Part shown: in pieces, positions 1 through 45,706 of the stretch
Position numbering within the stretch: the stretch's first letter is position 1
How the letters are laid out: every line of letters starts with the position of its first letter
Assembly (NCBI GenBank): GCA_963645945.1
Contig: CAVIUA010000040.1
Coordinates: 34,353-98,352, forward strand
DNA from: a bacterium
Lineage (GTDB): Bacteria > Bacillota_I > Bacilli_A > RF39 > UBA660
Direction: 5' to 3'
Length of the DNA: 64,000 bases
Notes under the pieces: generated by a model
Seen by the model: only the letters and a program-made list of their open reading frames with translations
The model's database searches: none
What the model was told of the DNA's origin: nothing
Translations under genes and position numbers: made by a program

Positions 1-321
1 TATTTTCTTATATTAAATAGAAAAAAGATTTATGCAGAGAAAAATAAATATGATAAATTAGTAAATACTAATGATATTTCTAGTGATATAGATAAATACA
101 TGGAAGAAGAACTTACGATAGATGAATTTTATTCCTATCCTTTTCCTAAAAAGATAGCTTTAGTTAGACAACTTTACACTTCTAATATGAAAAAATTAGG
201 GGATAAATTAATGAAAGAAATTGAAAGCAGTTCTTGTACTGACTTGGAAAAGAAAACTATTTCAAAGGAAAAACAAAATAAAAAATTATATATTATTAAA
301 GGAAAATTTGGACAAAAGTAA
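1..321 (+). CDS. Partial CDS (C-terminal fragment) of a hypothetical protein running off the left edge
   Basis: Frame 1 is open from nt 1 through the stop at 319-321. The ORF track starts at the Met at 100, but there is no upstream stop inside the window. A T-rich stretch follows the stop. Confidence 0.4.
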   Translation, partial: YFLILNRKKIYAEKNKYDKLVNTNDISSDIDKYMEEELTIDEFYSYPFPKKIALVRQLYTSNMKKLGDKLMKEIESSSCTDLEKKTISKEKQNKKLYIIKGKFGQK

Positions 322-381
322 TTTTTGTTCTTTTTTTTTCTTTTTTTTTATGTATAATTATATTATAGGAGGAGTGAAAAA

Positions 382-945
382 ATGAAAAAGGGTACAATTA
401 TAGGTTTGGTTGTTTTAGGGGTATTATTAATATTAGTTTTGGTTGTTATAGGAAATTATAATAGTATTGCTACTAGTAGAGAAAATGTTGATACTAAGAG
501 TAGTGATGTAGATGTTTATTTACAAAGAAGAGCTGATTTAATTCCTAATTTAGTAAGTACAGTTAAGGGATATATGCAACATGAAGAACAAGTTATTTCT
601 GATATTACTACAGCAAGAGAAAATTTATTAAGTGCTAGTAGTATGTCTGAAAAAGCAGCAGCAAATGATGAGTTAACTAATGCTATTAATGCTTTAGCAG
701 TGGTAGTTGAAAATTATCCTGATTTAAAAGCAAATACAAATTTTATTAATTTACAAGATGAACTTACAGGAGCTGAAAATAGAATATCAACTGCTAGACG
801 TGATTATAATGATGCTGTTAAGGAATATAATACTTTAATTATTAAATTTCCTAATAGTATTTTAGCTTCTATATTTAAGTTTGAAAAAGCAGAGTACTTT
901 AAAGCTGATGAAGAAAAAACTGAAGTTCCTAATGTAGAGTTCTAA
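382..945 (+). CDS. lemA: LemA family protein
   Basis: N-terminal transmembrane helix followed by a LemA-type core (RADLIPNLV ... ENYPDLKAN ... RRDYN). AGGAGG ribosome-binding site 8 nt upstream. Paralogous to 26844..27389. Confidence 0.8.
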   Translation: MKKGTIIGLVVLGVLLILVLVVIGNYNSIATSRENVDTKSSDVDVYLQRRADLIPNLVSTVKGYMQHEEQVISDITTARENLLSASSMSEKAAANDELTNAINALAVVVENYPDLKANTNFINLQDELTGAENRISTARRDYNDAVKEYNTLIIKFPNSILASIFKFEKAEYFKADEEKTEVPNVEF

Positions 946-946
946 T

Positions 947-1876
947 ATGAAAAAGAAATTATTTTTGGTACTAGTATTAGTACTTTTTCCTTTTAATTGT
1001 TTTGCATTAGTTAGTCCTACAAATGAATTTTATATAAATGATTATGCTAATATTCTTAGTGATGATGTTGAACAATATATTCTTTCTAGATCAGTTGATT
1101 TAAAAAGTAAAACTGATGCTCAGATTGTTGTTGTTACTGTTGAAAATTTAGAAGGAATGAGTTTGGAAGATTATGCTACTAAATTATTTAGGAAATTTGG
1201 AATAGGAGATTCTGAGAAGAATAATGGTTTGCTGTTACTTTTATCTTTAGAAGAACGTCAATTTAGAGTTGAAGTTGGATATGGTTTAGAAGGAGTATTA
1301 ACCGATGGTCTTACAGGAAGATATCAAGATCAATATATTATTCCATATTTAAAAAATAATGACTGGGATACTGGTGTTAAAACTGGATATACAGCATTTT
1401 ACAAAAAACTTTGTGATTATTATGATATAGAAGCATTAGATGATACCATTGTAATAACTGATTTTGATGAATATTTAGAAGATGACGATAGTGATGATAT
1501 TATTGGTTCTTTAATAGCTCTTATTTGGACGTTTTCAGTTATTGGTTTTATGCAAGGTAGATATTCATCGCTTGTTAGTAAGAAAAAGAAAGGTAAATTG
1601 TGTACATTTTATATTGTTGCTTCAATATTATTATTGGTTTTCCTTTTCGCAATGATTTTTTTAGTTTCGTATTTATTTTGGTTACCAATTTTAGTATTTA
1701 AAGAAATCTTTTTTGTTATTGGTATAGCTAGTACTAAGTCTGGTTCTAGTGGAGGACACTCAAATCGTTGGTCATATTCTTCTAACAGTAGCTGGTCATC
1801 ATCGAGTTATTCTTCTGGAGGTTTTTCTGGTGGAGGAGGATCATCTGGTGGAGGCGGAAGCTCAAGAGGATTTTAA
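947..1876 (+). CDS. TPM-domain membrane protein (YgcG-like), the usual LemA partner
   Basis: Begins 2 nt after the lemA stop. Signal/TM segment, a TPM-like core, transmembrane segments and a Gly/Ser-rich low-complexity C-terminal tail (SGGGGSSGGGGSS). LemA+TPM gene pairs are a known conserved arrangement. Confidence 0.6.
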   Translation: MKKKLFLVLVLVLFPFNCFALVSPTNEFYINDYANILSDDVEQYILSRSVDLKSKTDAQIVVVTVENLEGMSLEDYATKLFRKFGIGDSEKNNGLLLLLSLEERQFRVEVGYGLEGVLTDGLTGRYQDQYIIPYLKNNDWDTGVKTGYTAFYKKLCDYYDIEALDDTIVITDFDEYLEDDDSDDIIGSLIALIWTFSVIGFMQGRYSSLVSKKKKGKLCTFYIVASILLLVFLFAMIFLVSYLFWLPILVFKEIFFVIGIASTKSGSSGGHSNRWSYSSNSSWSSSSYSSGGFSGGGGSSGGGGSSRGF

Positions 1877-1891
1877 TTTATGAGTATTATA

Positions 1892-1920
1892 ATGTCTATC
1901 TCATTGATAGACATTTTTTC
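1892..1920 (+). terminator. Rho-independent terminator (ATGTCTATC/GATAGACAT plus T5)
   Basis: Perfect 9-bp inverted repeat followed by TTTTT, directly after the TPM gene. Confidence 0.6.
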
Positions 1921-1924
1921 TTTT

Positions 1925-1950
1925 GTTTTGTATAATTAAATATATAATGG
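1925..1950 (+). promoter_or_regulatory. Candidate extended -10 promoter (TGTATAAT) for the helicase module
   Basis: TGTATAAT lies about 25 nt upstream of the GGAGTGA ribosome-binding site and the ATG at 1962. In DNA this AT-rich, chance TATAAT matches are common. Confidence 0.3.
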
Positions 1951-1961
1951 AGTGATTTATA

Positions 1962-2762
1962 ATGAGTGATGTATTTAGTATTGAAAAAGCTAATATTTAT
2001 GAAGACCAGGATAATTATTATTTCTTTAGGGCTCTTAATCTAAATGACTGTAGAGATGCCGATGATGGTGTTATTACAAATGATTCTGGATTAGTTAATC
2101 GAGTTAGAACTGATAGAGAAAGGTATACTGGTGAGTCTAGATATGCTTTTTCGTCAGCTGTTTCTTTAGAAGAAGTTACAGATCATATTAAAATACATCA
2201 GTCTAAAACAACTAATTGTATTTCTTTAACTAGTAATGCTAATACCGCTATTACATATGGTAGAGGATATTATAGGGATAGATATATACTTGTTAAAGTT
2301 CCTAAAAAAGAACTTGGTAGTAAAGTATTTCAAGCTGGACCTTATATGTTGGATGAGATAAATAAGGCAATTAATGAGGTACTTGAAAGTAAAGATGGAG
2401 CAGAAAGAGAAAAATATGAAAGACTTTTTTCAAGAGTTGATGAATGCAAGACAAGCAATAGTTTGGAGACTTTAAAGCAACTTTTAGTAGATGATAATTT
2501 AGTTTCTTTAGAGAATAGAAAAAGAGAAGAAGACAGCTTTGTTAATGGCTTGGATTTTAATATGACAAAGTCGGTTAATTATAATGCGTTAGATGAAGAA
2601 GCTAATTTAGAAAAGAATAAGACTATTCTTAAACTTGATATTTTAAGTGAACAAATATTGCCTAGAATATCTAATAAACTTTTAATAGCAACGGTAGGTG
2701 GTGCTTTTTCTTCATCTGAATTAATTCATTATGGAGATATTGAACCTAGTGAATTAAGATAA
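1962..2762 (+). CDS. Hypothetical protein (266 aa), first gene of the helicase module
   Basis: Own ribosome-binding site (GGAGTGA). No motif I can assign confidently. Same reading frame as the downstream helicase, separated by TAA plus 15 nt that contain a GGAAG ribosome-binding site. Confidence 0.5.
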   Translation: MSDVFSIEKANIYEDQDNYYFFRALNLNDCRDADDGVITNDSGLVNRVRTDRERYTGESRYAFSSAVSLEEVTDHIKIHQSKTTNCISLTSNANTAITYGRGYYRDRYILVKVPKKELGSKVFQAGPYMLDEINKAINEVLESKDGAEREKYERLFSRVDECKTSNSLETLKQLLVDDNLVSLENRKREEDSFVNGLDFNMTKSVNYNALDEEANLEKNKTILKLDILSEQILPRISNKLLIATVGGAFSSSELIHYGDIEPSELR

Positions 2763-2777
2763 ATACAGAAGGAAGTA

Positions 2778-5700
2778 ATGGATGTTTTGTCTTTACTTCA
2801 ACAAATGCCTAGCAATTTAGAATTTATTGATGAAATTAAAGATAGAGTGCTTAATTGTGTAAGTACAAGAATATTTTCTGGTGAATTTAATTATAGTGAT
2901 TTTGATTTAGTTGATAGAGATTTATCGATTGATAATATGTATGAAGTTTTTGGTAATGGTAGAGTTTCTTATGGCGAGGCTAGAGAATTATATAGAAAAG
3001 CTTATTATTTAGCTAAGTCAAGACTTAGGGCTATTAAAAGTGTTAGTTTATTGAATACTATTTTAGATAATAATCCTAAATATAGTGAAACACTTGAATA
3101 TATTGCTAAAAATGGATATGGTATTGAACCGGAAATTACGACTAGAGTTTCTAAAGACTTGGTTACAGTATCTGAATCGGTTAGTTTGGATATAAGTAGT
3201 AAAGATATTGAATTAGTTAATTATATTAATAGTTTAAGTGAAGGTCAGTTAAATACGGTGTTAAATCATCCGAATGACGCAATTAGAGTATTTGCAGCTA
3301 GACATTTCTTTGATGATTTTTCTAGACATACTGTAAATAGAGAAGAATATATTGCTGATAGTTTGATTGATTTGTTAGATTTAAGTAAGTTTGGTGTTAA
3401 ATTTAATTTAAGCCCTGAACAAAGAGAAGATATTAAGAATAGAATTTTAGAATTTAATTTAGAAGAGTTATATTCATATTGTAGTTCTAATGGTGTTTTG
3501 GAAAAAGATATGGCTAGAATAGTCTTTACTAATTTGATTAAAGGAACAAAAGATTTTAATACAAAGGATACTTTTACTTTAGAAGAATTAGAATGGTTCA
3601 TTGGTTATAATGCAATTAAAGATACTAATATAAAGTTACTTGCTTATCAAAGACCTATAATTAGAAGAATTAAAGAAAAATATGAGGATAAACAATTTAC
3701 GGCTGCTGTTATGCCTACTGGAACTGGTAAAACTTATATTAGTTTAGCTATGATGAATGAGTTCGAAAAAACGGCTAATGGTTTAAGTGAAAATAATCAT
3801 GCTAAAATATTGTATTTAGCTCCTAATGTTGAAATACTTGATCAATTAAAGAGAACTATTAGAAAGGCATATCATCCAGAAGAACATCTTGGTCAAGATA
3901 TTGATACGGTTATAAAGGAGGTTTTTCCTAATTTAGTTTTATCAACATATCAGAATTTAGCTGATAATAGTAGTATTGGTATAGGGCCTGATGGCAAAAA
4001 AGAAATTAGTTTAAAAGAAGATTTTAGAGATCAATTTGACTTTATAGTTTTAGATGAATTACATAGAACTGGAGCTCCTGAATGGTATAGTTCTATTGGT
4101 ATGCTTTTAGATAGTCAGGATGAAAAGACGAAGATTTTAGGTATAAGTGCAACACCTGAAAGAGATGTTGATTTTAAAGATATGACAGATTTCTGGGCTA
4201 GAAGATATGACTATAGTGAAGATGAAATTTTACTAGGTGAACAAATGGCTTATAATATGGATCTTATAAAAGCTATAGATTTAGGATTAGTTAATTAACC
4301 AGTAATTATCAATTGCTTGTATTCATTGATTGCTGATGGTACTATGGATGATTTGGAATTGTCAATTGATGATTTATTGGATGAAAATATAAAAAGCACA
4401 GAAAAAGCTAAATATGAGAAGTTAAGACGAAATGTTGAAAATTCTGATGGTATAGAAAAAATCATTGGAGATAATATAAAAGAAGGAAGTAAATTTATTG
4501 TATTTTTACCTGTTACTAGAAGAGATGATGGTACTTTTACTTTAGATGATGGAGAAGAAATTGAAGGTAGTAAAGCAAGTTAAATAATAAGAGATTATCA
4601 AACTTTATTTATACAGTATTTATATGCCAATAAATATTTTAATGAACATGCTCAGATATATGACATTTATGATAAATTGGCAGCTGGAGAGGCTCTTGGC
4701 AATGAAGAAATATCTTATTTAGAAAGTGAAAAGGATAATTTGTTACTGTTGTCAAAAGTCAGTATTTCATATAAGCCAATGGCTTTAAATACACAAATTG
4801 AAGAAATATCTTCAACAATTATTTCTTCGTTGGGCTGGAATGAGTTAGACAAGAATGAACTTGTGACAAGACTTAATGAAGTTATGGGTGATGAAGTAGA
4901 AAATTATTCAATGCTTGGAGAATATTCTAATGGTAGAAATAAATCAGAGTTATATAGTTTTAGTAATTCAAGAAGTAAGAAAAGAAAATTAATGTTTGTT
5001 ATAAACAAGTTAAATGAAGGTACACATGTTGAAGATGTAGACGGAATTGTCTGGTTAAGAACATTGAACGATAATTCCAGAATTTTGTTTCAACAACAAC
5101 TAGGTAGATGTATAAGGGCTAATTTGCCAGATAGACCGGCAAAGACACCTATAGTATTAGACTTGGTTAATAATACGGTAACAGTTAAGTTAAAAAAAGG
5201 CGAATTACAGGAGTCTAGAGATTTAAGTAACTTAGATAGTTTGATTGATTGGTTAGATGATAATAATAGAATACCAAATATTAATAGTGAAAATATCACT
5301 GAATATGAATATGCTAAATTTATAAAAGTTTTACAAGATAGATATGTTAAATATTTTGATGAAGATGTTTTACAAGAAAACAAGAATACTTTAAATATTC
5401 AGATTATTAAAAGAATTCTTTCTAAAGGTTCTGAAGCTGGTTTATGGGATGTTGAAATATTAGATAAAAATGATAAATATACCGATGATATTAAGAAAAA
5501 CAGTGTTACTGATTATTCATTTATTGGAAGACTCCAAGTAAGTTCTGAAATACATGACTTTTTAGAATTACAAGGAGAAATTAGTTCATATGAGCCAACT
5601 GATCTTGAGACAAAATTTGAAGAGTATTGTCAAATTTTAACTAATTTGAAGGAACAAGGACTAAATCCTAATTTAAGAATAGGAGATAAAGTACTCGTTA

Positions 5701-6077
5701 ATGAAGAAGGAAGCTTGGAAGTTATAAGTGTGCCATCGGTTCGTAAAGAAGGTAAGCCAAATCTTTCTATAATAAATGGTAGAAAAGAGACAGAAATTGA
5801 ATGGAGAGAAAGGAAGAAAAAATATTCATCTAAAGAGGCTATTCCTGTTGGTAACTGGCTATATAAAAATTATTCTGAATTTACTCATTCTATGAGGGAT
5901 AGATTAATAGATCTCGGCTATACTAAAGGTGAAGAGAGCCTAAAAAGAAGAACTGCACATGCTAAAAAGAAGGCTGATTTTGATGATAACAGTACCTTTG
6001 GTAAGGTTGTTACTGAGGTTTCCAAAGGAGCTTTAGATAATAAAGATACTGATGTGAAAGCTGGTGATAAGAAATGA
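2778..6077 (+). pseudogene. Superfamily-2 DExH-type helicase (~1100 aa composite) interrupted by in-frame TAA codons at 4296..4298 and 4581..4583
   Basis: ORFs 2778..4298, 4317..4583 and 4677..6077 are all in frame 0 with no frameshift between them. Helicase motif I (AAVMPTGTGKTY), motif II (FIVLDELHR) and motif III (GISATPE) are in the first segment. A motif IV-like KFIVFLP is in the second. Motif VI (FQQQLGRCIRA) is in the third. Long non-helicase extensions of about 300 aa at each end. Confidence 0.6.
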
Positions 6078-6334
6078 TGGAAAGTTATTATGAGTTAGTT
6101 GATTCTTTTAAAGACTTGGATGTTTATGATAAGAAAGAAGAAATAATTAATGAATTATTAAGCTTATTAAAACTTCTGTCTGTAGTTAATAAAAATTCGG
6201 ATGTTATGAATGAAGTATTACCTGTTATACAGAGTCATGATGATGAAGAGGAATACTTTGATGAGTTATTTACAATAATCATATCTTTGAAGGAAGAATA
6301 TGCTAAGTTAATAGATAGAGATTATTTAGATTAA
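6074..6334 (+). CDS. Small acidic hypothetical protein (86 aa), translationally coupled to the helicase
   Basis: Its ATG overlaps the helicase stop as ATGA. pI is clearly acidic (DDEEEYFDELF). A terminator follows. Confidence 0.5.
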   Translation: MMESYYELVDSFKDLDVYDKKEEIINELLSLLKLLSVVNKNSDVMNEVLPVIQSHDDEEEYFDELFTIIISLKEEYAKLIDRDYLD

Positions 6335-6360
6335 TAGCAAGAAAAACTTGCTATTTTTCT
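6335..6360 (+). terminator. Rho-independent terminator (TAGCAAG/CTTGCTA plus T5)
   Basis: 7-bp stem with a 5-nt loop and a T-run immediately after the stop at 6334. It closes the 1962..6334 operon. Confidence 0.6.
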
Positions 6361-6393
6361 TTATTTGATAAAGTATTTTTGTTATAATATTTT

Positions 6394-8958
6394 TTGGTGA
6401 AGTATATGAAACGCAGTGAAGTAGATAGAGAAAAATTAAGTCCTATGATGCAACAATATATGGAGATAAAGGATAAATACGAAGATAGTATTATCTTTTT
6501 TAGACTTGGAGATTTTTATGAGATGTTTTTTGAAGATGCAATACTTGCTTCACACGTTTTAGAGTTAACTTTAACTGGCAAACAAGCAGGATTAGATGAA
6601 AGAGTTCCAATGTGTGGTGTTCCTCATCATGCTTATGCTTCATATGTAGATGAATTAATAGATAAAGGCTATAAAGTTGCGATATGTGAACAATTAGAGG
6701 ACCCTAAAGAAACTAAAGGAATGGTTAAAAGAGATGTTGTTCAAATAGTTACTAAGGGTACAAGACTTGATTCTAATATAGACGCTAAAAGTAATAATTA
6801 TATTGCTAATATATATGACTTTTCATATTGTTATGGGGTTAGTTATGCAGATGTTTCTACGGGAGAAGTTTATGTTACTTTAATTGATGGAGAAAAATAT
6901 AAAGTAATTAAAGAAGTAGTCAGAAATGGTTTTAGAGAAGTTATCGTTAATGACTTAATAGATAGAGAAATAGTAGAAGAATTACGAACTAATTATGGAA
7001 TACTTGTTAGTATTACTAAAGAAGAATTAGATGATAAAAATTATGAATATATTTATAAAGATTTAGAAGATGTTAGACTTACACAAACTTTAAAACATTT
7101 ACTGTATTACATAGTTGATACTAAAAAGGGGGATTTACATCATTTACAAAAAGCTATTGTAGTTAAATCAAGTGAATATTTAGAATTTGATATTAATACA
7201 AAAAAGAATTTAGAATTAATTGAAACACTTAGAAATAGAGAAAGACAATATAGTTTATTCTGGTTACTTGATAAGAATAAGACTGCTATGGGATCTAGAT
7301 TTTTAAAACATAATATTGAAAATCCTTTAACATCTAAAGAAGAATTAGAAAGACGATATAATTATGTATCTAAATTATCTACAGAATTTATTTTGAGAGA
7401 TGATTTAATAAAAGCTTTAGACGAAGTTTACGATTTAGAAAGAATTGCTGGTAGAGTTACATATGGTAATTTAAATGCTAAAGATTTATTACAATTAAAA
7501 GGATCTTTAGAAGCTCTTCCAAGGATTAAAGAAATATTAACTACTATTGGCTATGACAAAGAAATAGAAATTTTTGATGACTTATATTCATTACTTGATA
7601 GAGCAATATTACCAGATGCACCTTTTACTTTACATGAGGGACATTTAATTAAACCTGGATATAATGAAGAACTTGATGAATTAAAAGATATTAGTGCTGG
7701 TTCTAAAGACTTTATTTTAGAGATAGAGCAACAAGAAAGAGAAAAGACTGGTATTAAAAATTTAAAAGTTGGATTTAATAAAGTATTTGGATATTATATT
7801 GAAGTGCCTAAGGGACAAAAACATTTAATTAAAGATGAATATGGATATGAAAGAAGACAAACTTTAACTAATTGTGAAAGATTTATTACACCAATATTAA
7901 AAGAAAAAGAAAATATTATACTAGGTGCAGAAGATAAGATTATTAATCTTGAATATAAGTTATTTATGGATATTAGAGAAGTAGTTAAAAGATATGTTTT
8001 TAGATTACAAAGACTTTCTAAAATAATTAGTGAAGTTGATATGTTACAAGCATTTTCTATTGTTTCTGATAATTATAAGTTTGTAAGACCAGAAATTGTT
8101 TCGGATAGAACTGTTAAAATGATAGGATGTCGTCATCCAGTGGTTGAACAAGTTATGAAGGATAAGTATGTTCCTAATGATATTATTATGGATAAGACTA
8201 CTGATATTTTATTAATTACTGGTCCTAATATGGCTGGTAAATCTACTTATATGAGACAATGTGCTATTACTGTTATTATGGCTCAGATTGGATGTTTTGT
8301 ACCATGTAAGAGTTGTGCTATGCCTATTTTTGATAAGATATTTACTCGTATTGGTGCTTCGGATGATTTAGTTTCTGGACAGTCTACTTTTATGGTTGAA
8401 ATGAGAGAAGCTAATTATGCAATTAGTGAAGCTACACCTAATAGTTTGATTTTATTTGATGAACTTGGTCGTGGTACGGCTACATATGATGGTATGAGTT
8501 TGGCACAAGCTATACTTGAATATATTCATGATAAGATTAAGGCTAAGACAATGTTTTCGACTCATTATCATGAACTAACTGTTTTAGAAAAAGATCTTAA
8601 ACATTTAAAAAATGTACATGTTTCAGCAGTTGAAGAAGATGGTAAAATTACATTTTTACATAAAGTAAAACCTGGTTCAGTAGATAAGAGTTATGGTATT
8701 CATGTTGCTTCTTTAGCGAAATTACCTGATAGTTTGATAAAAAGAGCTGATGAAATACTTAGTGTATATGAAAAGAAGAATGTTAAAAAAGAAACATTTA
8801 CGCAAACTTCATTATTTGAACTTAGTGAAAGTGAAGTTGAAGTTAAAACTAATCCAATAGAAGAGAAAGTTAGAGAAATTAATCCTTTGGAAATGACACC
8901 AATGGAAGCTTTATCATTTCTTTATGAATTAAAAAAAGAAATTAAAGATAAAAAGTAA
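6394..8958 (+). CDS. mutS: DNA mismatch repair protein MutS
   Basis: 854 aa. N-terminal mismatch-binding region (GDFYEMF) and an ABC-type ATPase with Walker A GPNMAGKSTYMRQ. Confidence 0.95.
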   Translation: MVKYMKRSEVDREKLSPMMQQYMEIKDKYEDSIIFFRLGDFYEMFFEDAILASHVLELTLTGKQAGLDERVPMCGVPHHAYASYVDELIDKGYKVAICEQLEDPKETKGMVKRDVVQIVTKGTRLDSNIDAKSNNYIANIYDFSYCYGVSYADVSTGEVYVTLIDGEKYKVIKEVVRNGFREVIVNDLIDREIVEELRTNYGILVSITKEELDDKNYEYIYKDLEDVRLTQTLKHLLYYIVDTKKGDLHHLQKAIVVKSSEYLEFDINTKKNLELIETLRNRERQYSLFWLLDKNKTAMGSRFLKHNIENPLTSKEELERRYNYVSKLSTEFILRDDLIKALDEVYDLERIAGRVTYGNLNAKDLLQLKGSLEALPRIKEILTTIGYDKEIEIFDDLYSLLDRAILPDAPFTLHEGHLIKPGYNEELDELKDISAGSKDFILEIEQQEREKTGIKNLKVGFNKVFGYYIEVPKGQKHLIKDEYGYERRQTLTNCERFITPILKEKENIILGAEDKIINLEYKLFMDIREVVKRYVFRLQRLSKIISEVDMLQAFSIVSDNYKFVRPEIVSDRTVKMIGCRHPVVEQVMKDKYVPNDIIMDKTTDILLITGPNMAGKSTYMRQCAITVIMAQIGCFVPCKSCAMPIFDKIFTRIGASDDLVSGQSTFMVEMREANYAISEATPNSLILFDELGRGTATYDGMSLAQAILEYIHDKIKAKTMFSTHYHELTVLEKDLKHLKNVHVSAVEEDGKITFLHKVKPGSVDKSYGIHVASLAKLPDSLIKRADEILSVYEKKNVKKETFTQTSLFELSESEVEVKTNPIEEKVREINPLEMTPMEALSFLYELKKEIKDKK

Positions 8959-8995
8959 TTATTATGATATAATCTATTTAAGATGGTGATGTTAA

Positions 8996-10303
8996 TTGAA
9001 AGAAATAGAAAAGGCTTTTATAGTTAATGCAGGTAATTCATATACACCTGATGATTATGGTGTTATTTTATATCGAGATGGTACGCGTGAATATTTAGAT
9101 ACTGGTACATTTTTAGATAGATTAAATAGTGAATCTAATACTTTAAGAGAAATACCAAGTATAACAAAAATGCAATTTGTTACTGATTATTCTTATTTTA
9201 AAGATGAATTTAATGATTTTGTTCATAGTCAGAATAATGTAAAGGACAGAAAAGCAAAAATTGTAATGGAGAGACTTGGTTTGGACTTTAATACAATGTA
9301 TGATATTTATGAATATGAATCATATAAAAAGGCTTCGGATGAAGAATCGGTTAATCGAATTGATTCATTTGTTGATAGATGCTTTGAAATTGCTTCTAGT
9401 GAGTGTAGAAGATCAGGTATTTCTTATAATAGGAATAAAAAAGAAATTATTGAAAGCGTTTTGAGTAAGACAGTAAAAAATGAAAGTTATCCTTCTGGCA
9501 TAGATATAAGTTTTTGTACTAGTCGTGATGCTGTCTATGATAAATATGATGAAGATGTTAATCAAGCTAGTAATAGTAGAGATTTAGATAAAATTTCTAA
9601 AGATTATAGATATATTAGACAATTTTATCTTATTTCTTATTTATCTTCATTTATGGGAAATGAGAGTGATTTTCTTCTTGCTTTAGTTGATAATGCATAT
9701 CCTAATCGGAATTTAATTTTAGAGAATTGGACTGAGTTTTTCTCTGTATGCAGGGAATATTCTGGTATAATTGACGCTGTTAATGAATGTTCAAATGATT
9801 CAGAAAAGTTAAAAGCTGATTTTGATTTACTTAACCTTGAAAGTAATAAGAAATTTATGAATGATTTGGATTTATTACTTGAACATAATCCAGATGAAGA
9901 AACATATTATTTTCATGCTACTAATTCTAGAACTAGTGCACAAAATATCTTGGATAAAGGTTTATATATGTATGCTGATGATTTAAGTTCTACTACTTAT
10001 CCTGAACTTACTAAGAAAGACGTGCTAAGTTATGAATATGGAAATGGATTAGGTAATAGTGCTACATATGTTGTGGTACTTAAGTGTAGAGAAGGAGATA
10101 ATATAGTTAGAAATACAACTGATTTTGAAAAGAAAGAAAGTGTTGGTGTTTCTAGAAGAATGGCTTTGGTTTCTGAAGAATGTGATTATATAGTTGATCC
10201 TGAAAATATCGTTGGATTTATTGATAGAAAAAAAGGAGAGGTTGTTTTTAACAAAATGGTAAAAAAAGATACTAATTCTAAGGAGGGTAAAAATGAAAAG
10301 TAG
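8996..10303 (+). CDS. Hypothetical protein (435 aa) sitting where mutL would normally be
   Basis: TTG start with a GGTGA ribosome-binding site. No Bergerat-fold (GHKL) ATPase motifs, so it is not MutL. The C-terminal region (YYFHATNSRTS...GLYMYADD) gives no confident assignment. Confidence 0.45.
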   Translation: MKEIEKAFIVNAGNSYTPDDYGVILYRDGTREYLDTGTFLDRLNSESNTLREIPSITKMQFVTDYSYFKDEFNDFVHSQNNVKDRKAKIVMERLGLDFNTMYDIYEYESYKKASDEESVNRIDSFVDRCFEIASSECRRSGISYNRNKKEIIESVLSKTVKNESYPSGIDISFCTSRDAVYDKYDEDVNQASNSRDLDKISKDYRYIRQFYLISYLSSFMGNESDFLLALVDNAYPNRNLILENWTEFFSVCREYSGIIDAVNECSNDSEKLKADFDLLNLESNKKFMNDLDLLLEHNPDEETYYFHATNSRTSAQNILDKGLYMYADDLSSTTYPELTKKDVLSYEYGNGLGNSATYVVVLKCREGDNIVRNTTDFEKKESVGVSRRMALVSEECDYIVDPENIVGFIDRKKGEVVFNKMVKKDTNSKEGKNEK

Positions 10304-10697
10304 AAGTGAGTTAAGAGATATTATTGTTAAAGTTCTTTATCAAGCTAATTTGTTTGATGAGGCTAAAGTTAATTATAATGTTGATGAATTAATTAAGGAA
10401 CAATTTGATGTTCAAAACGAGTTTGTTGATACTTGTGTTAAAGGGATATTAGAAAATAAAAAGGAAATTTATAAACTTGCTGATAGTAAGCTTAATAAAT
10501 GGACTATGGATAGATTAAATAAAGTTGATCAAGCTATTATAGCTCTTGGTATTTTTGAACTTAAATATATTGATACACCTAGTGTAGTAGCAATTAATGA
10601 AGCTATTGAATTATCTAAGACTTATTCTGAACCTGCTGTTACTAAAATGATTAATGGCGTTTTAGATAAGATATATCATGATGTAGAAAAATGTTAG
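10293..10697 (+). CDS. nusB: Transcription antitermination factor NusB
   Basis: 134 aa. Sits immediately upstream of xseA, as in the Bacillus nusB-xseA-xseB arrangement. Composition is NusB-like. Confidence 0.7.
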   Translation: MKSRSELRDIIVKVLYQANLFDEAKVNYNVDELIKEQFDVQNEFVDTCVKGILENKKEIYKLADSKLNKWTMDRLNKVDQAIIALGIFELKYIDTPSVVAINEAIELSKTYSEPAVTKMINGVLDKIYHDVEKC

Positions 10698-11960
10698 GTG
10701 AGAAATATGAATGATAAATATATTACAGTTACACAGTTAACTAGATATATTAAGTATAAAATAGATAATGATGTTAATTTAAATGAAGTTTTTCTTAAGG
10801 GTGAAATATCTAATTTTAAAGCACATACTAGAGGACATTATTATTTTACTTTAAAGGATGATGGCAGTAGAATTAACGCTATTATGTTTGCTTCTAGTAC
10901 GAAAAAACTTAAGTTTATGCCAAATGACGGAATGAAGGTTTTAGTTACTGGTAAAATTAGTGTATTTGAGGCAAATGGTGGTTATCAGATTTATGTTAAT
11001 GATATGTTGGAAGATGGTATTGGTAATTTATATATTGCTTATGAACAGTTAAAGAAAAAACTTGAGGCTGAAGGATTATTTGATCAAGCTATTAAGAAAA
11101 AGATTCCTAGAATTCCTAAACGTATTGGTGTAGTTACGGCTCCGACAGGAGCTGCTATTAAAGATATTATTTCAACTATTAAAAGACGTTGGCCCATTGC
11201 TGAGGTATATTTATTTCCAGCCTTGGTTCAAGGTGAAGACGCTAAAGAAGATATAGTTAAGCAAATTCATAATAGTATTAATTATGATATAGATACTTTA
11301 ATTGTTGGTCGTGGTGGAGGAAGTATTGAGGACTTATGGGCATTTAATGAAGAGATAGTTGCACGAGCAATATATGAGTGCCCGGTTCCAGTTATTAGTG
11401 CTGTTGGTCATGAAATAGACTTTACAATAGCTGACTTTGTGGCAGACTTAAGAGCTCCAACTCCTACTGGTGCAGCTGAAATGGCTGTTCCTGATATTAA
11501 TGATATAAAAGCGTATTTAGAACAAATTAAGATTAGACTTAATAAAGCTATTACTAATGATATTAAAATATATAGAGAAAAATTAAATTATTTAAAGTCT
11601 AGACCAGTACTTGTTAATCCAATTACTATATATCAAAATAAAGAAATGATTTTTGATAATATTATTGAAAGACTTAAGTTTAGTATGAAAGATATTGTTA
11701 ATTTAAAAGAAAAAAGATTAATAACTATTAAGAATTCTTATGCTTTGAAAAGTCCATATCAATTAATAGATAAGAAAGCTAATAAGTATTTGCAGATAGT
11801 TTCTAAGTTGGAAACACTTAGTCCATTACTTACTATTAAGAGAGGTTATTCTATAACGAGAATTGATGGTAAAGTATTATCTAGTGTTAAGAAAATTAAA
11901 AAGAAAGATGTTATTACTGTTGAATTTAGTGATGGTAATATAAAAGCGGAGGTATTGTGA
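10698..11960 (+). CDS. xseA: Exodeoxyribonuclease VII large subunit
   Basis: 420 aa. N-terminal OB fold followed by a catalytic core (GRGGGSIEDLWAFNEE). Confidence 0.9.
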   Translation: MRNMNDKYITVTQLTRYIKYKIDNDVNLNEVFLKGEISNFKAHTRGHYYFTLKDDGSRINAIMFASSTKKLKFMPNDGMKVLVTGKISVFEANGGYQIYVNDMLEDGIGNLYIAYEQLKKKLEAEGLFDQAIKKKIPRIPKRIGVVTAPTGAAIKDIISTIKRRWPIAEVYLFPALVQGEDAKEDIVKQIHNSINYDIDTLIVGRGGGSIEDLWAFNEEIVARAIYECPVPVISAVGHEIDFTIADFVADLRAPTPTGAAEMAVPDINDIKAYLEQIKIRLNKAITNDIKIYREKLNYLKSRPVLVNPITIYQNKEMIFDNIIERLKFSMKDIVNLKEKRLITIKNSYALKSPYQLIDKKANKYLQIVSKLETLSPLLTIKRGYSITRIDGKVLSSVKKIKKKDVITVEFSDGNIKAEVL

Positions 11961-12877
11961 TGAGTAAGAAAAATGATTATTCTTTTGGTATATATTTTTA
12001 TATTTTATTAGGAATGAGTTTAGCTGGTACTATATCTTTAGTTATACTTTATTCTATTATTAGCACGTATTCAGTTTGTGCCGATGATTTAATTTATGAA
12101 TTTGTTAGGAGAATTTTTGTTTTCTTTTCTTTAGAAAATGGTATTTTGTATTTATATTGTTTGATTTCACTTATTTTGGCAGGAAAGAAGAAACTCATTA
12201 ATTTTAAAATGATTCTTTTAATTATATTTGCTATTCTTTCTAGTCCTGTTGTTTGTCATTTTATTCAAAATACTATTTCTAGTCTTAATTCATATTTTCA
12301 TGTTGAAGTGAATGGTAATATTGTCACTGATGATAAACCAATGCTATATGTATATCCAACAGAGGATATGGATTTAACTATAAAATTAAAAAATGATAAT
12401 TTAATTACATATTCATATCCTAAGTATAATAATGAATGGAGCGTTCACGCTACTGTTGATGGCAATTTATATGATTATGAAACAGGTAGAAATTATTATG
12501 CATTATTTTGGGAAGGTATTGATAATAATATTTACGATATGAATGAAGGGTTTGTCGTTACTGGTAAAGATACTGTTAAGTTCTTGGAAGAGAAATTAAG
12601 TATACTTGGATTGAATGATAGAGAAATTAATGAGTTTATAGTATATTGGCTACCTAAGATGGAAGATAATAAATATAATTATATAAGATTTAGAACTGAA
12701 GATGAGATAAATACTTATATGCCTATTGAATTTAGTAGTAATCCTGATACTTTAATAAGAATATATATGGATTTTAAAGGATTAGATAAGAAAGTTAATA
12801 TAAAAGAACAAAAGTTAACTAGTGTTAGTAGAGAAGGATTTACTGTTGTTGAATGGGGCGGCAGAGAACTAAAGTAA
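11957..12877 (+). CDS. Hypothetical membrane protein inserted between xseA and xseB
   Basis: Four or five N-terminal transmembrane helices and a soluble C-terminal domain. Overlaps the xseA stop by 4 nt. Confidence 0.5.
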   Translation: MMSKKNDYSFGIYFYILLGMSLAGTISLVILYSIISTYSVCADDLIYEFVRRIFVFFSLENGILYLYCLISLILAGKKKLINFKMILLIIFAILSSPVVCHFIQNTISSLNSYFHVEVNGNIVTDDKPMLYVYPTEDMDLTIKLKNDNLITYSYPKYNNEWSVHATVDGNLYDYETGRNYYALFWEGIDNNIYDMNEGFVVTGKDTVKFLEEKLSILGLNDREINEFIVYWLPKMEDNKYNYIRFRTEDEINTYMPIEFSSNPDTLIRIYMDFKGLDKKVNIKEQKLTSVSREGFTVVEWGGRELK

Positions 12878-12892
12878 GAAAGGAAAAATATT

Positions 12893-13120
12893 ATGGCAGA
12901 AAAAAAAGTTCTAAGTTTTGAAGAGAACTTAGAAAAGTTAGAAACTATTGTTAAAAAGTTAGAAACTGGTGAAGTTCCTTTGGATGAAGCAATAGATAAT
13001 TTTAATGAAGCTATGAAATTAGCTAAAACTTGTGATGAGAAATTAAAAAATGCAGAAGAAGCTATTACTAAATTAGTAAAAGATAATGGCGACGTTGTTG
13101 ATTTTAAAGTAGAAGAGTAG
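12893..13120 (+). CDS. xseB: Exodeoxyribonuclease VII small subunit
   Basis: 75 aa helical protein (FEENLEKLETIVKKLETGEVPLDEAI), typical of XseB. Confidence 0.85.
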   Translation: MAEKKVLSFEENLEKLETIVKKLETGEVPLDEAIDNFNEAMKLAKTCDEKLKNAEEAITKLVKDNGDVVDFKVEE

Positions 13121-13126
13121 AATAAA

Positions 13127-13158
13127 ACCTATGTAAAATTACATAGGTCTTTTTTTTA
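13127..13158. terminator. Bidirectional rho-independent terminator (ACCTATGT/ACATAGGT)
   Basis: 8-bp perfect stem flanked by A-runs and T-runs, between convergent xseB and the DUF1292-like gene. Confidence 0.65.
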
Positions 13159-13378
13159 TTCTTCAATTAAACTCATAGCTAGTTCAAATTCTTCATCATT
13201 ATCTAATGGGTATATTGTTTCTTGATCTACAGTTGTATATTTTCTTATTAAATTATCATTTTCATCATCAAGATTTGATAAATACATATAAGTAGTATCA
13301 CCTGATGTTTTTTCCATAACTACTTCGTATTTTTTGTTATCAATTAATACGTATTCTACTTCTCTTTCTTCAGTCATA
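13156..13378 (-). CDS. DUF1292 (YrzB-like) small acidic protein, 74 aa
   Basis: The real start is the ATG at 13376-13378, preceded by AGGAGG. The ORF-track entry 13156..13467 extends into the upstream gene. Sequence YVLIDNKKYEVV...DDEND...EEFE matches the DUF1292 pattern of Firmicutes. Confidence 0.55.
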
Positions 13379-34962: not shown

Positions 34963-35618
34963 GCTGGTTATCGCCCTATTTATCTTTTTATGCAAAAAAA
35001 TCATCATGCATTTTCAAAACTTTGACATATTGTTTCTTCTGTACATTCACATTTATCACTGTTGCAAGTACAGCTAATTTTTATTGATTCTAATTCACAA
35101 CATTCTTTGTCTTTTCTAATTATTATTTTGAAGATTTTTTTCTAAATTATGCAATGTTAAATATTTTAAATTTAGATGAACAATTATACATCTTTTAATA
35201 TTTAAATCGCTTAAAATGCATTTTAGATTTTATACATAATTTTTAATAGGGCGGTAATATTTAAATTAATATAGAATTAATCAGACACATTTAATAATAT
35301 AAAATGATTAATAAGTAATAATAAAATAATACTATGATAAATAAAATAGATTTACAGATAAAAAGTAATTAAAATAATTAAAATGAATTTATATTTAAAA
35401 TTTATATATGGTATTATATAATTAGTTGGAGATAAATGGATAGAAATAGAATGTAGTAATCCTTATTTATATAAATATATAAAGATAGGGTAATATTTAT
35501 TTTGATTTTGAAATATATATAGAAGTTAACATAATATCAATTATAGGAAGTTATAATATTAAAAAAATAGATGAATATATGATTGTTTATGTATATAAAT
35601 TAAGTTATTGAACTTATA

Positions 35619-35634
35619 TTTTTTTTTTTTTTTT
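35619..35634. repeat. Homopolymeric T16 tract in an ORF-free AT-rich region
   Basis: 16 consecutive T at 35619-35634, immediately 5' of GGATATAAT. Confidence 0.9.
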
Positions 35635-35731
35635 GGATATAATTTTTATATATAACTTATATTATACATTAATTATTATCGTGTATTAATTTTTTTTGTT
35701 ATATATTTATATAGATAAAATTTTAAATTAA

Positions 35732-35773
35732 AAACAGTTCTTTTAAATTTTATATAGAACTGTTTATTTTTTT
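35732..35773. terminator. Bidirectional terminator (AAACAGTTCT/AGAACTGTTT plus T7)
   Basis: 10-bp perfect stem with a 14-nt loop. T-run on plus, A-run upstream. It is downstream of the HTH gene on the minus strand. Confidence 0.6.
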
Positions 35774-35829
35774 AATAATTTATATGTATAGTTATAGTAT
35801 ACTTACTACTACTCTTCTCTACTACATCC

Positions 35830-45629: not shown

Positions 45630-45706
45630 TGGTAGCCTGTACGGAATTCGAATCCGTGAATGTTGCCTTGAGAGGGCAATGTGTTAAGCCACTTCACCAA
45701 CAGGCC
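45630..45706 (-). tRNA. tRNA, anticodon CUC (Glu) by hand-folding; CCA encoded
   Basis: Cloverleaf: acceptor GGCCTGT/ACAGGCT (G1-U72), T-arm ACGGA-TTCGAAT-TCCGT, anticodon stem TTGCC/GGCAA with loop CTCTCAA, 5-nt variable loop, discriminator A plus CCA. Confidence 0.75.

Follow-up and report, generated by a model that had tools for sequence, protein, structure and literature searches.

In the window analyzed here, a stretch of 64,000 nucleotides of contig CAVIUA010000040.1 (assembly GCA_963645945.1, positions 34,353 to 98,352 of the forward strand), a long helicase gene close to the left end is very likely a young, strain-specific pseudogene, i.e., a conserved chromosomal gene of an uncultured human-gut bacterium that has acquired three independent nonsense substitutions. 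All positions given below refer to the window, and the features are collected in Table 1. In its intact form the gene would encode a protein of roughly 1,400–1,750 aa, predicted to consist of a novel N-terminal domain, a middle region, a superfamily 2 (SF2) helicase of the ResIII/XPB-like type and a variable number of C-terminal repeats.

When 1962..6079 was translated in a single frame, 1,371 sense codons were obtained, with in-frame TAA codons at 2760-2762, 4296-4298 and 4581-4583 and no frameshift; the disrupted gene closes with TGA at 6075-6077. An initial annotation of this DNA had described a helicase frame broken by TAA codons and never by frameshifts, with the helicase motifs divided among pieces of one gene. 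Our single-frame translation agrees with the former and the colinear alignment to single intact proteins with the latter, and the open reading frame (ORF) coordinates, the common frame and the gap peptides PVIINC (4299..4316) and IIRDYQTLFIQYLYANKYFNEHAQIYDIYDK (4584..4676) all match. The annotation had counted two nonsense codons and regarded 1962..2762 as a separate upstream gene. The two codons at 4296 and 4581 are indeed present. Intact orthologs, however, start with a sequence matching 1962..2762 (MSDVF...YYFFRALN in the proteins P0001–P0007), which therefore represents the N-terminal 266 residues of the same protein, so that there are three nonsense codons and not two, the additional one being the TAA at 2760. 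Motifs I, II and III (MPTGTGKT, DELH and SAT) are found in 2778..4298 together with the Pfam ResIII/DEAD lobe, and motif VI (QQQLGRCIR) in 4677..6077. From this it follows that the helicase core is cut. Stops 2 and 3 fall between motifs I–III and motif VI, and stop 1 severs everything beyond residue 266. For annotation, this means that the four ORF calls, the "upstream gene" included, should be merged into one pseudogene.

A protein search with the joined translation returned 277 homologs. The best of them, P0001–P0007, share 87–93% amino-acid identity with the window and are single proteins of 1,495–1,741 aa, one of which carries the NCBI name DEAD/DEAH helicase and comes from a "Bacilli bacterium" metagenome-assembled genome (MAG). 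As the whole stretch is colinear with single intact proteins at this level of identity, the arrangement is not due to chance. At the DNA level, we compared the orthologous loci L001, L002, L003, L010 and L004, the last a GTDB species representative, as well as L014, which covers sites 2 and 3. The first five each contain one unbroken ORF (intact ortholog ORFs span 1,492–1,741 aa) and the same gene order, LemA, TPM, the helicase gene, an 86-aa ORF, MutS, NusB and XseA. In the codon alignment all five carry GAA, TCA and CAA at sites 1 to 3, with nearly identical neighboring codons, and L014 has TCA and CAA at sites 2 and 3. Each TAA is hence a single-base nonsense substitution. Sense codons thus occupy the TAA sites in every related locus compared, and the TAA allele was found only in the MAG from which the window derives and in two sequencing runs, which bears out strain-specific inactivation, one of the options that the initial annotation had offered. 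L005, a syntenic ortholog at a greater distance (59% identity), is intact, and so is its paralog L006. These two are full-length helicase paralogs of one related MAG, lying about 30 kb apart on contig CAKPMY010000006.1, and only one of them adjoins mutS; no further paralog able to compensate was found within our window.

The stops are true alleles and not assembly errors. From run SRR13434665, two Logan contigs match window positions 89..3412 (L008) and 5901..13334 (L009) at 100% identity, and stop 1 is reproduced in the former, a separate assembly of that run. A contig from another run, SRR13434647 (L011), covers 3812..6110 and contains stops 2 and 3; its four differences from the window all lie in 5466..5558. 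In addition, an NCBI contig of 114,671 bp, presumably that of the source MAG, has entries for proteins identical to the fragments. A literature search on the two run accessions found nothing. Likewise, two pattern scans of JGI metagenomes for closer intact relatives or carriers of the TAA allele gave no match, nor did an exact look-up of the 506-aa fragment, and the six proteins that a search with the region over stops 2 and 3 retrieved did not include an intact allele of near identity.

We propose that three independent single-base changes, GAA>TAA at 2760, TCA>TAA at 4296 and CAA>TAA at 4581, would have silenced the gene. Translation from the native start would end after the 266-aa N-terminal domain, and re-initiation at ATG 2778 could at most give a 506-aa piece with the first helicase lobe alone. 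As the two helicase lobes are no longer part of one chain, we infer that the helicase is dead. Together with the 86-aa ORF, the gene looks like a self-contained cassette, with a hairpin and promoter-like site upstream and a second hairpin before mutS. A polar effect on mutS causing hypermutation was also considered and is unlikely, because mutS is intact and is set off from the cassette by the hairpin and a promoter-like site.

Table 1. Positions of the disrupted helicase gene, its fragments and nonsense codons, and adjoining features in the window
Feature	Position	Strand	Remarks
Whole disrupted gene	1962..6077	+	1,371 codons in one frame, ~4.1 kb; orthologous to intact P0001–P0007 and P0123
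Fragment 1, N-terminal domain, 266 aa	1962..2762	+	Stops at the first TAA
Nonsense codon 1	2760..2762	+	TAA for GAA (Glu) of orthologs, G>T
Fragment 2, 506 aa, middle region and first helicase lobe (ResIII/DEAD, motifs I–III)	2778..4298	+	
Nonsense codon 2	4296..4298	+	TAA for TCA (Ser) of orthologs, C>A
Fragment 3, 94 codons, start of second helicase lobe	4299..4583	+	
Nonsense codon 3	4581..4583	+	TAA for CAA (Gln) of orthologs, C>T
Fragment 4, 497 codons, remainder of second lobe (motif VI), C-terminal region, TGA	4584..6077	+	
C-terminal repeat unit, single copy, ~122 aa	5604..5948	+	
Promoter-like site TAGACA-17-TATAAT, 11/12	1908..1936	+	Best site upstream of the gene; consensus scan only
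Terminator-like hairpin closing the upstream TPM gene	1891..1915		Overlaps the promoter-like site 1908..1936
Conserved acidic 86-aa ORF	6074..6334	+	Overlaps the helicase stop (ATGA)
Terminator-like hairpin after the 86-aa ORF, ahead of mutS	6333..6355		

Age of the stops and selection on the gene

Apart from the stops, the gene appears as constrained as its intact relatives. The ratio of non-synonymous to synonymous substitution rates (dN/dS, Nei–Gojobori method NG86) between the window and its nearest intact relative, L001, was 0.19 at a dS of 0.19, compared with 0.21–0.32 for pairs of intact sequences. Four segments ahead of the repeats, among them segments downstream of stops, gave values of 0.12–0.27. 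None was near 1, which speaks against the relaxation to be expected from the decay that the initial annotation had considered. We furthermore counted private changes, i.e., positions in the first 1,230 codons where one sequence differs and the other five agree. In the window, 22 changes of this kind are synonymous, 14 are missense and 3 are nonsense, and its private non-synonymous to synonymous ratio of 0.64 compares with 0.56–0.92 in the five intact orthologs. The private missense changes are conservative, with four D>N exchanges and E>D, I>L, M>I and Y>F among others. No private deviation of the window was found at 177 family-conserved columns (conservation in 90% or more of 102 distant homologs), and the 12 deviations that it does show there are shared exactly with intact relatives.

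Signs of relaxed selection on the gene, namely a dN/dS moving toward 1, frameshifts or the loss of conserved residues, were thus absent, which is what only a very young pseudogene would show. The nearest intact relative differs at 6% of nucleotides, and measured against this distance all three stops must be recent, as constraint on the remaining sequence still looks complete. Judged by these comparisons, the three stops appear to be the only damage, and the inactivation seems very recent and strain-specific.

As a mutational baseline, we reverted the gene to its sense form and enumerated every single-base change. Nonsense changes make up 5–7% of the neutral mutations at non-synonymous sites, about half of them give TAA, and GAA>TAA is the commonest nonsense path. 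The chance that all three stops are TAA is about 0.12–0.14, and since about half of the possible nonsense mutations lead to this codon, an all-TAA set is unremarkable. Of the earlier suggestion of a decaying pseudogene with an AT bias toward TAA, the disruption of the gene hence stands; there is no decay beyond the stops, and the choice of TAA needs no particular explanation.

How the second and third stop arrived is less clear-cut. On a purely neutral course, a chance nonsense change would have killed a dispensable gene and two more stops would have drifted in unselected. We consider this possible, though on balance somewhat doubtful. In agreement with it, all three stops are in one gene and none is found in about 17,700 other codons of the window, as expected once constraint is lifted; all three changes are GC>AT and in line with the AT-biased composition; and GAA>TAA and CAA>TAA are the commonest nonsense paths. 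Moreover, other members of the family are broken as well (L012, L013 and L015, see below), and choosing this gene for its several stops introduces an ascertainment bias. In contrast, two extra stops should bring about 30–40 neutral substitutions with them. Missense changes are not in excess, with 14 observed and about 12–20 expected under constraint, and neither a frameshift nor a change at the 177 conserved columns accompanies the stops. Combining at least two extra stops, no missense excess and no changes at conserved columns, we estimate a best-case joint probability of about 0.002–0.016 under a first hit followed by drift, a figure that is post hoc and model-dependent. Nonsense changes are over-represented relative to missense changes, and at least some of the stops were hence probably favored and not fixed by neutral drift, which we take as a hint and not as proof.

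That stops are in excess over all other types of damage hints at selection for silencing and not at drift. Favored stops may save the cell from making a long truncated protein that is useless or harmful, or may remove a costly gene. In its most far-reaching form, which we put forward tentatively and regard as rather unlikely, the stops would represent the stepwise, positively selected silencing of a costly or self-harmful conflict protein, a so far undescribed fusion between an ADP-ribosyltransferase-like effector and a restriction-type helicase, that is repeatedly knocked out in gut Bacilli. If true, this would make the locus a natural case in which a commensal loses a gene adaptively, and would point to a helicase-effector family that is new.

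Several points weigh against our reading of the locus as a recently silenced pseudogene. Only the MAG consensus places stop 1 on the same haplotype as the other two. Loss of helicase function is something we infer from the interrupted frame, the screen for suppressor tRNAs spanned only 64 kb of the genome, and the low joint probability given above was calculated for a gene chosen because it has several stops.

Alternative readings of the in-frame stops

The gene might also have been split into working parts, with the N-terminal domain made on its own and the helicase restarting at ATG 2778, alone or in a complex. Stop 1 lies exactly at the domain boundary, and ATG 2778 follows 16 nt on, preceded by the ribosome-binding-like sequence AAGGAAG, which intact orthologs have as well. 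A stand-alone N-terminal module of 371 aa is encoded in a homologous locus (L007), and many short proteins consisting of the N-terminal domain only are found in the database. On the other hand, the helicase core is interrupted by stops 2 and 3 in the part that separates motif III from motif VI, and neither stop is followed by a credible start codon or ribosome-binding site; fragment 3 (4299..4583), on inspection, has no good start of either kind. A restart there would also lose conserved residues, e.g., PVIINC. A split of this type was not seen in any ortholog. The one short homolog that was inspected, L015, turned out to be broken by frameshifts and thus not cleanly split, and the short database proteins may be fragments from contig ends. 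We therefore regard a split into working parts as improbable.

Full-length product could alternatively arise by readthrough of the TAA codons, be it by an ochre suppressor tRNA, programmed readthrough or a variant code, a possibility that the initial annotation had raised. The rest of the gene, including the parts downstream of the stops, still looks under purifying selection, and the damage consists of stops alone and never of frameshifts, both of which would suit such a mechanism. Yet stop usage in the window speaks against it. The 51 other ORFs of at least 100 aa end in TAA (34), TAG (14) or TGA (3), and none of them shows an in-frame TAA. We searched the whole window for same-frame open stretches of at least 80 codons split by one stop and found no other split gene; the other pairs of this kind are distinct neighbors with their own starts, such as a sigma factor and thymidine kinase, MarR and an ABC transporter, NusB and XseA, and others. 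Where flanking genes could be compared with those of the orthologous loci, their lengths agreed. The orthologs lack the stops and have different residues at the three sites (E, S and Q).

The only tRNA in the window is a tRNA-Glu(CTC) at 45630..45706 on the reverse strand, which scored 59.9 bits in a local Rfam search against a threshold of 29 bits. Rfam at gathering thresholds returned no match in the whole window, although the local search recovers the tRNA, a quirk of the tool or its filter, so this empty result is to be read with caution. RNA structure that might promote readthrough was sought in the 84 nt from each stop, and none folded better than shuffled sequences (z = +0.35, -0.82 and +0.36). 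At ordinary bacterial leak rates, three successive TAA codons leave essentially no product, and an efficient ochre suppressor is very damaging where two thirds of the genes end in TAA. With TAA as the main terminator, one gene affected, three different residues at the sites and no structure after the stops, readthrough or suppression appears very improbable. In particular, genome-wide recoding or suppression of TAA was rejected on the basis of stop usage, the lack of another interrupted gene in the window and the three different residues, and a programmed readthrough site was rejected because orthologs have sense codons there and no folding signal follows the stops. The in-frame TAA codons are accordingly no sign of a variant genetic code. 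TGA ends 3 of 51 ORFs and is thus a rare terminator in this genome of 27% GC, but it still serves as a stop, and Trp is encoded by TGG. The organism uses code 11 and not the Mycoplasma-type code 4.

Least credible of all is an artefact, in which errors of sequencing or assembly, or the merging of several strains into one chimeric consensus, would have created the TAA codons. The source is a MAG, and within the gene the Logan assembly of that run is interrupted at 3412 and 5901, a hint of graph complexity there. Nevertheless, a different assembler gives stop 1 exactly and a different run gives stops 2 and 3 on one contig, and we know of no error mode in which substitution errors each make a stop in one gene and none in 60 kb of flanks.

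The helicase family and its locus

In its first lobe, the helicase matches Pfam ResIII (E = 3.1e-24) and DEAD (E = 1.4e-14), and the features of SF2 helicases of the ResIII/XPB-like group are present, i.e., Walker A (motif I), DExH (motif II), SAT (motif III) and the arginine of motif VI. Compared with solved structures, the family profile found 7clg_A, a 'putative helicase' (2e-12), the type I restriction R subunit 3h1t_A, XPBII and RadD, with E-values from 2e-12 to 4e-9. NCBIfam gave only sub-threshold matches to XPB, Hef and RadD.

The initial annotation had called the gene a defense helicase, a label that our searches leave unproven. PADLOC yielded only partial matches to the helicase lobe (PbeA, 3e-12; REase_I, 1e-11; Cas3, 1e-7 to 1e-8), which are generic for helicases. 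No full-length match to a defense system with partner genes was obtained among the PADLOC families, the neighbors being LemA, TPM, the 86-aa ORF, MutS and NusB, and no nuclease, methylase or specificity partner was found near the gene. Instead, the gene occupies a conserved chromosomal site beside mutS that is kept across lineages down to 59% identity, which suggests vertical inheritance and not a mobile island.

The 266-aa N-terminal domain is conserved throughout the family, with invariant F21, F22, R23, H75, C86, S88, N92, Y99, G100, S251 and E253. Sequence and profile searches with this domain gave no Pfam, NCBIfam or PDB match. An AlphaFold (AF2) model computed from a 40-sequence alignment is confident, with a predicted local distance difference test (pLDDT) score of 86. 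In Foldseek searches with this model, nearly all of the top PDB matches were ADP-ribosyltransferase (ART) toxins (cholera toxin A1, typhoid, pertussis-like, CARDS and the Rhs toxins TreX/TreTu), and T4 ModA was the top match in a viral library; all of these matches are non-significant (E at least 0.39, template modeling (TM) score 0.2–0.4). The domain is thus at best weakly ART-like, which we regard as a lead and not as a finding. With 209 clusters at 50% identity among 1.84 billion protein representatives, the domain family is a small one. The helicase family would accordingly be one of giant helicases with an uncharacterized, possibly ART-like N-terminal domain.

Broken members are not confined to the window. 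L012, a 44%-identical homolog in another context (L012:4069..7884), has GAA>TAA at L012:5812 and a probable frameshift in its C-terminal repeats. L013, from an L002-like strain (L013:343..1086), has GAG>TAG, L015 (L015:2736..6543) has two 1-nt frameshifts, and L007 encodes the N-terminal module only. The family thus appears to be repeatedly broken in nature. It seems dispensable and often lost, which fits an accessory or conflict role without proving it.

At the C-terminal end, length differences among the aligned sequences consist of whole repeat units only. The window and L011 have one copy, L001 and L002 two, and L003 and L010 four; in distant homologs, the unit weakly resembles the Pfam 'helicase associated' HA domain. 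The 86-aa ORF follows every syntenic ortholog, at 54–98% identity, and is not found after the paralog L006 or the distant homolog L012. The end of the helicase gene itself is shifted by a 1-nt indel, reading ...AGDKK* in the window and L001 and ...AGDKNDGKLL* in P0001 and P0007. This indel (window 6075..6077 compared with L002 and L003) also alters the overlap with the 86-aa ORF.

Farther along, the window appears to span the replication terminus. A dif-like site, ACTTCCTATAATTGATATTATGTTAACT, at 35524..35551 on the reverse strand matches the B. subtilis dif site at 24 of 28 positions. It sits in a gene-free, very AT-rich gap (34963..35829), and at this site the cumulative GC skew peaks and gene orientation switches from plus to minus.

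Comparison with known systems

Among SF2 helicases, the window protein resembles the ResIII, XPB/Rad25 and type I and type IV restriction motors, with the likeness limited to some 170 residues in the first motor lobe. Nothing in this group corresponds to its 266-aa N-terminal domain, its 280-aa middle region or its C-terminal repeats. In a possible likeness to the R-S-E type of ART (cholera and pertussis toxins) and to T4 ModA, invariant residues of the N-terminal domain form an aromatic-Arg element (FFR23), an S-x-S-like strand (C86-I-S88-L-T-S) and S251-x-E253, and R23, S88 and E253 could form an R-S-E-like triad. Unlike canonical ARTs, it has S-x-E in place of [QE]-x-E, and profile searches with its sequence found no ART family.

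Stop-codon reassignment is generally known from genetic codes 4 and 25 and from TAG- or TGA-recoded phages. As in these cases, the window gene has in-frame stops within a conserved coding gene. Here, however, TAA remains the main terminator and a single gene is affected; moreover, the aligned residues are E, S and Q rather than one amino acid, and no suppressor tRNA was found in the window.

Parallels also come from the recent or polymorphic nonsense pseudogenes of host-adapted Salmonella, Shigella and Yersinia lineages. These likewise feature single-base stops, a strain-specific disruption of a gene that is intact in sister strains and, owing to the youth of the event, a remaining sequence that is well preserved. 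PMC8018540, for example, deals with genome degradation in S. Typhimurium ST313. The window gene differs from the pseudogenes of enteric pathogens in having three nonsense changes and neither frameshift nor missense decay, i.e., more stops per substitution than neutral decay predicts, and the other ORFs of the window show no comparable interruption. It would otherwise be an ordinary young pseudogene, unusual solely in combining three stops with no other damage. It is a well-documented case of a very recent and strain-specific pseudogene, and its carrier is an uncultured human-gut commensal and not a host-restricted pathogen with decay throughout the genome.

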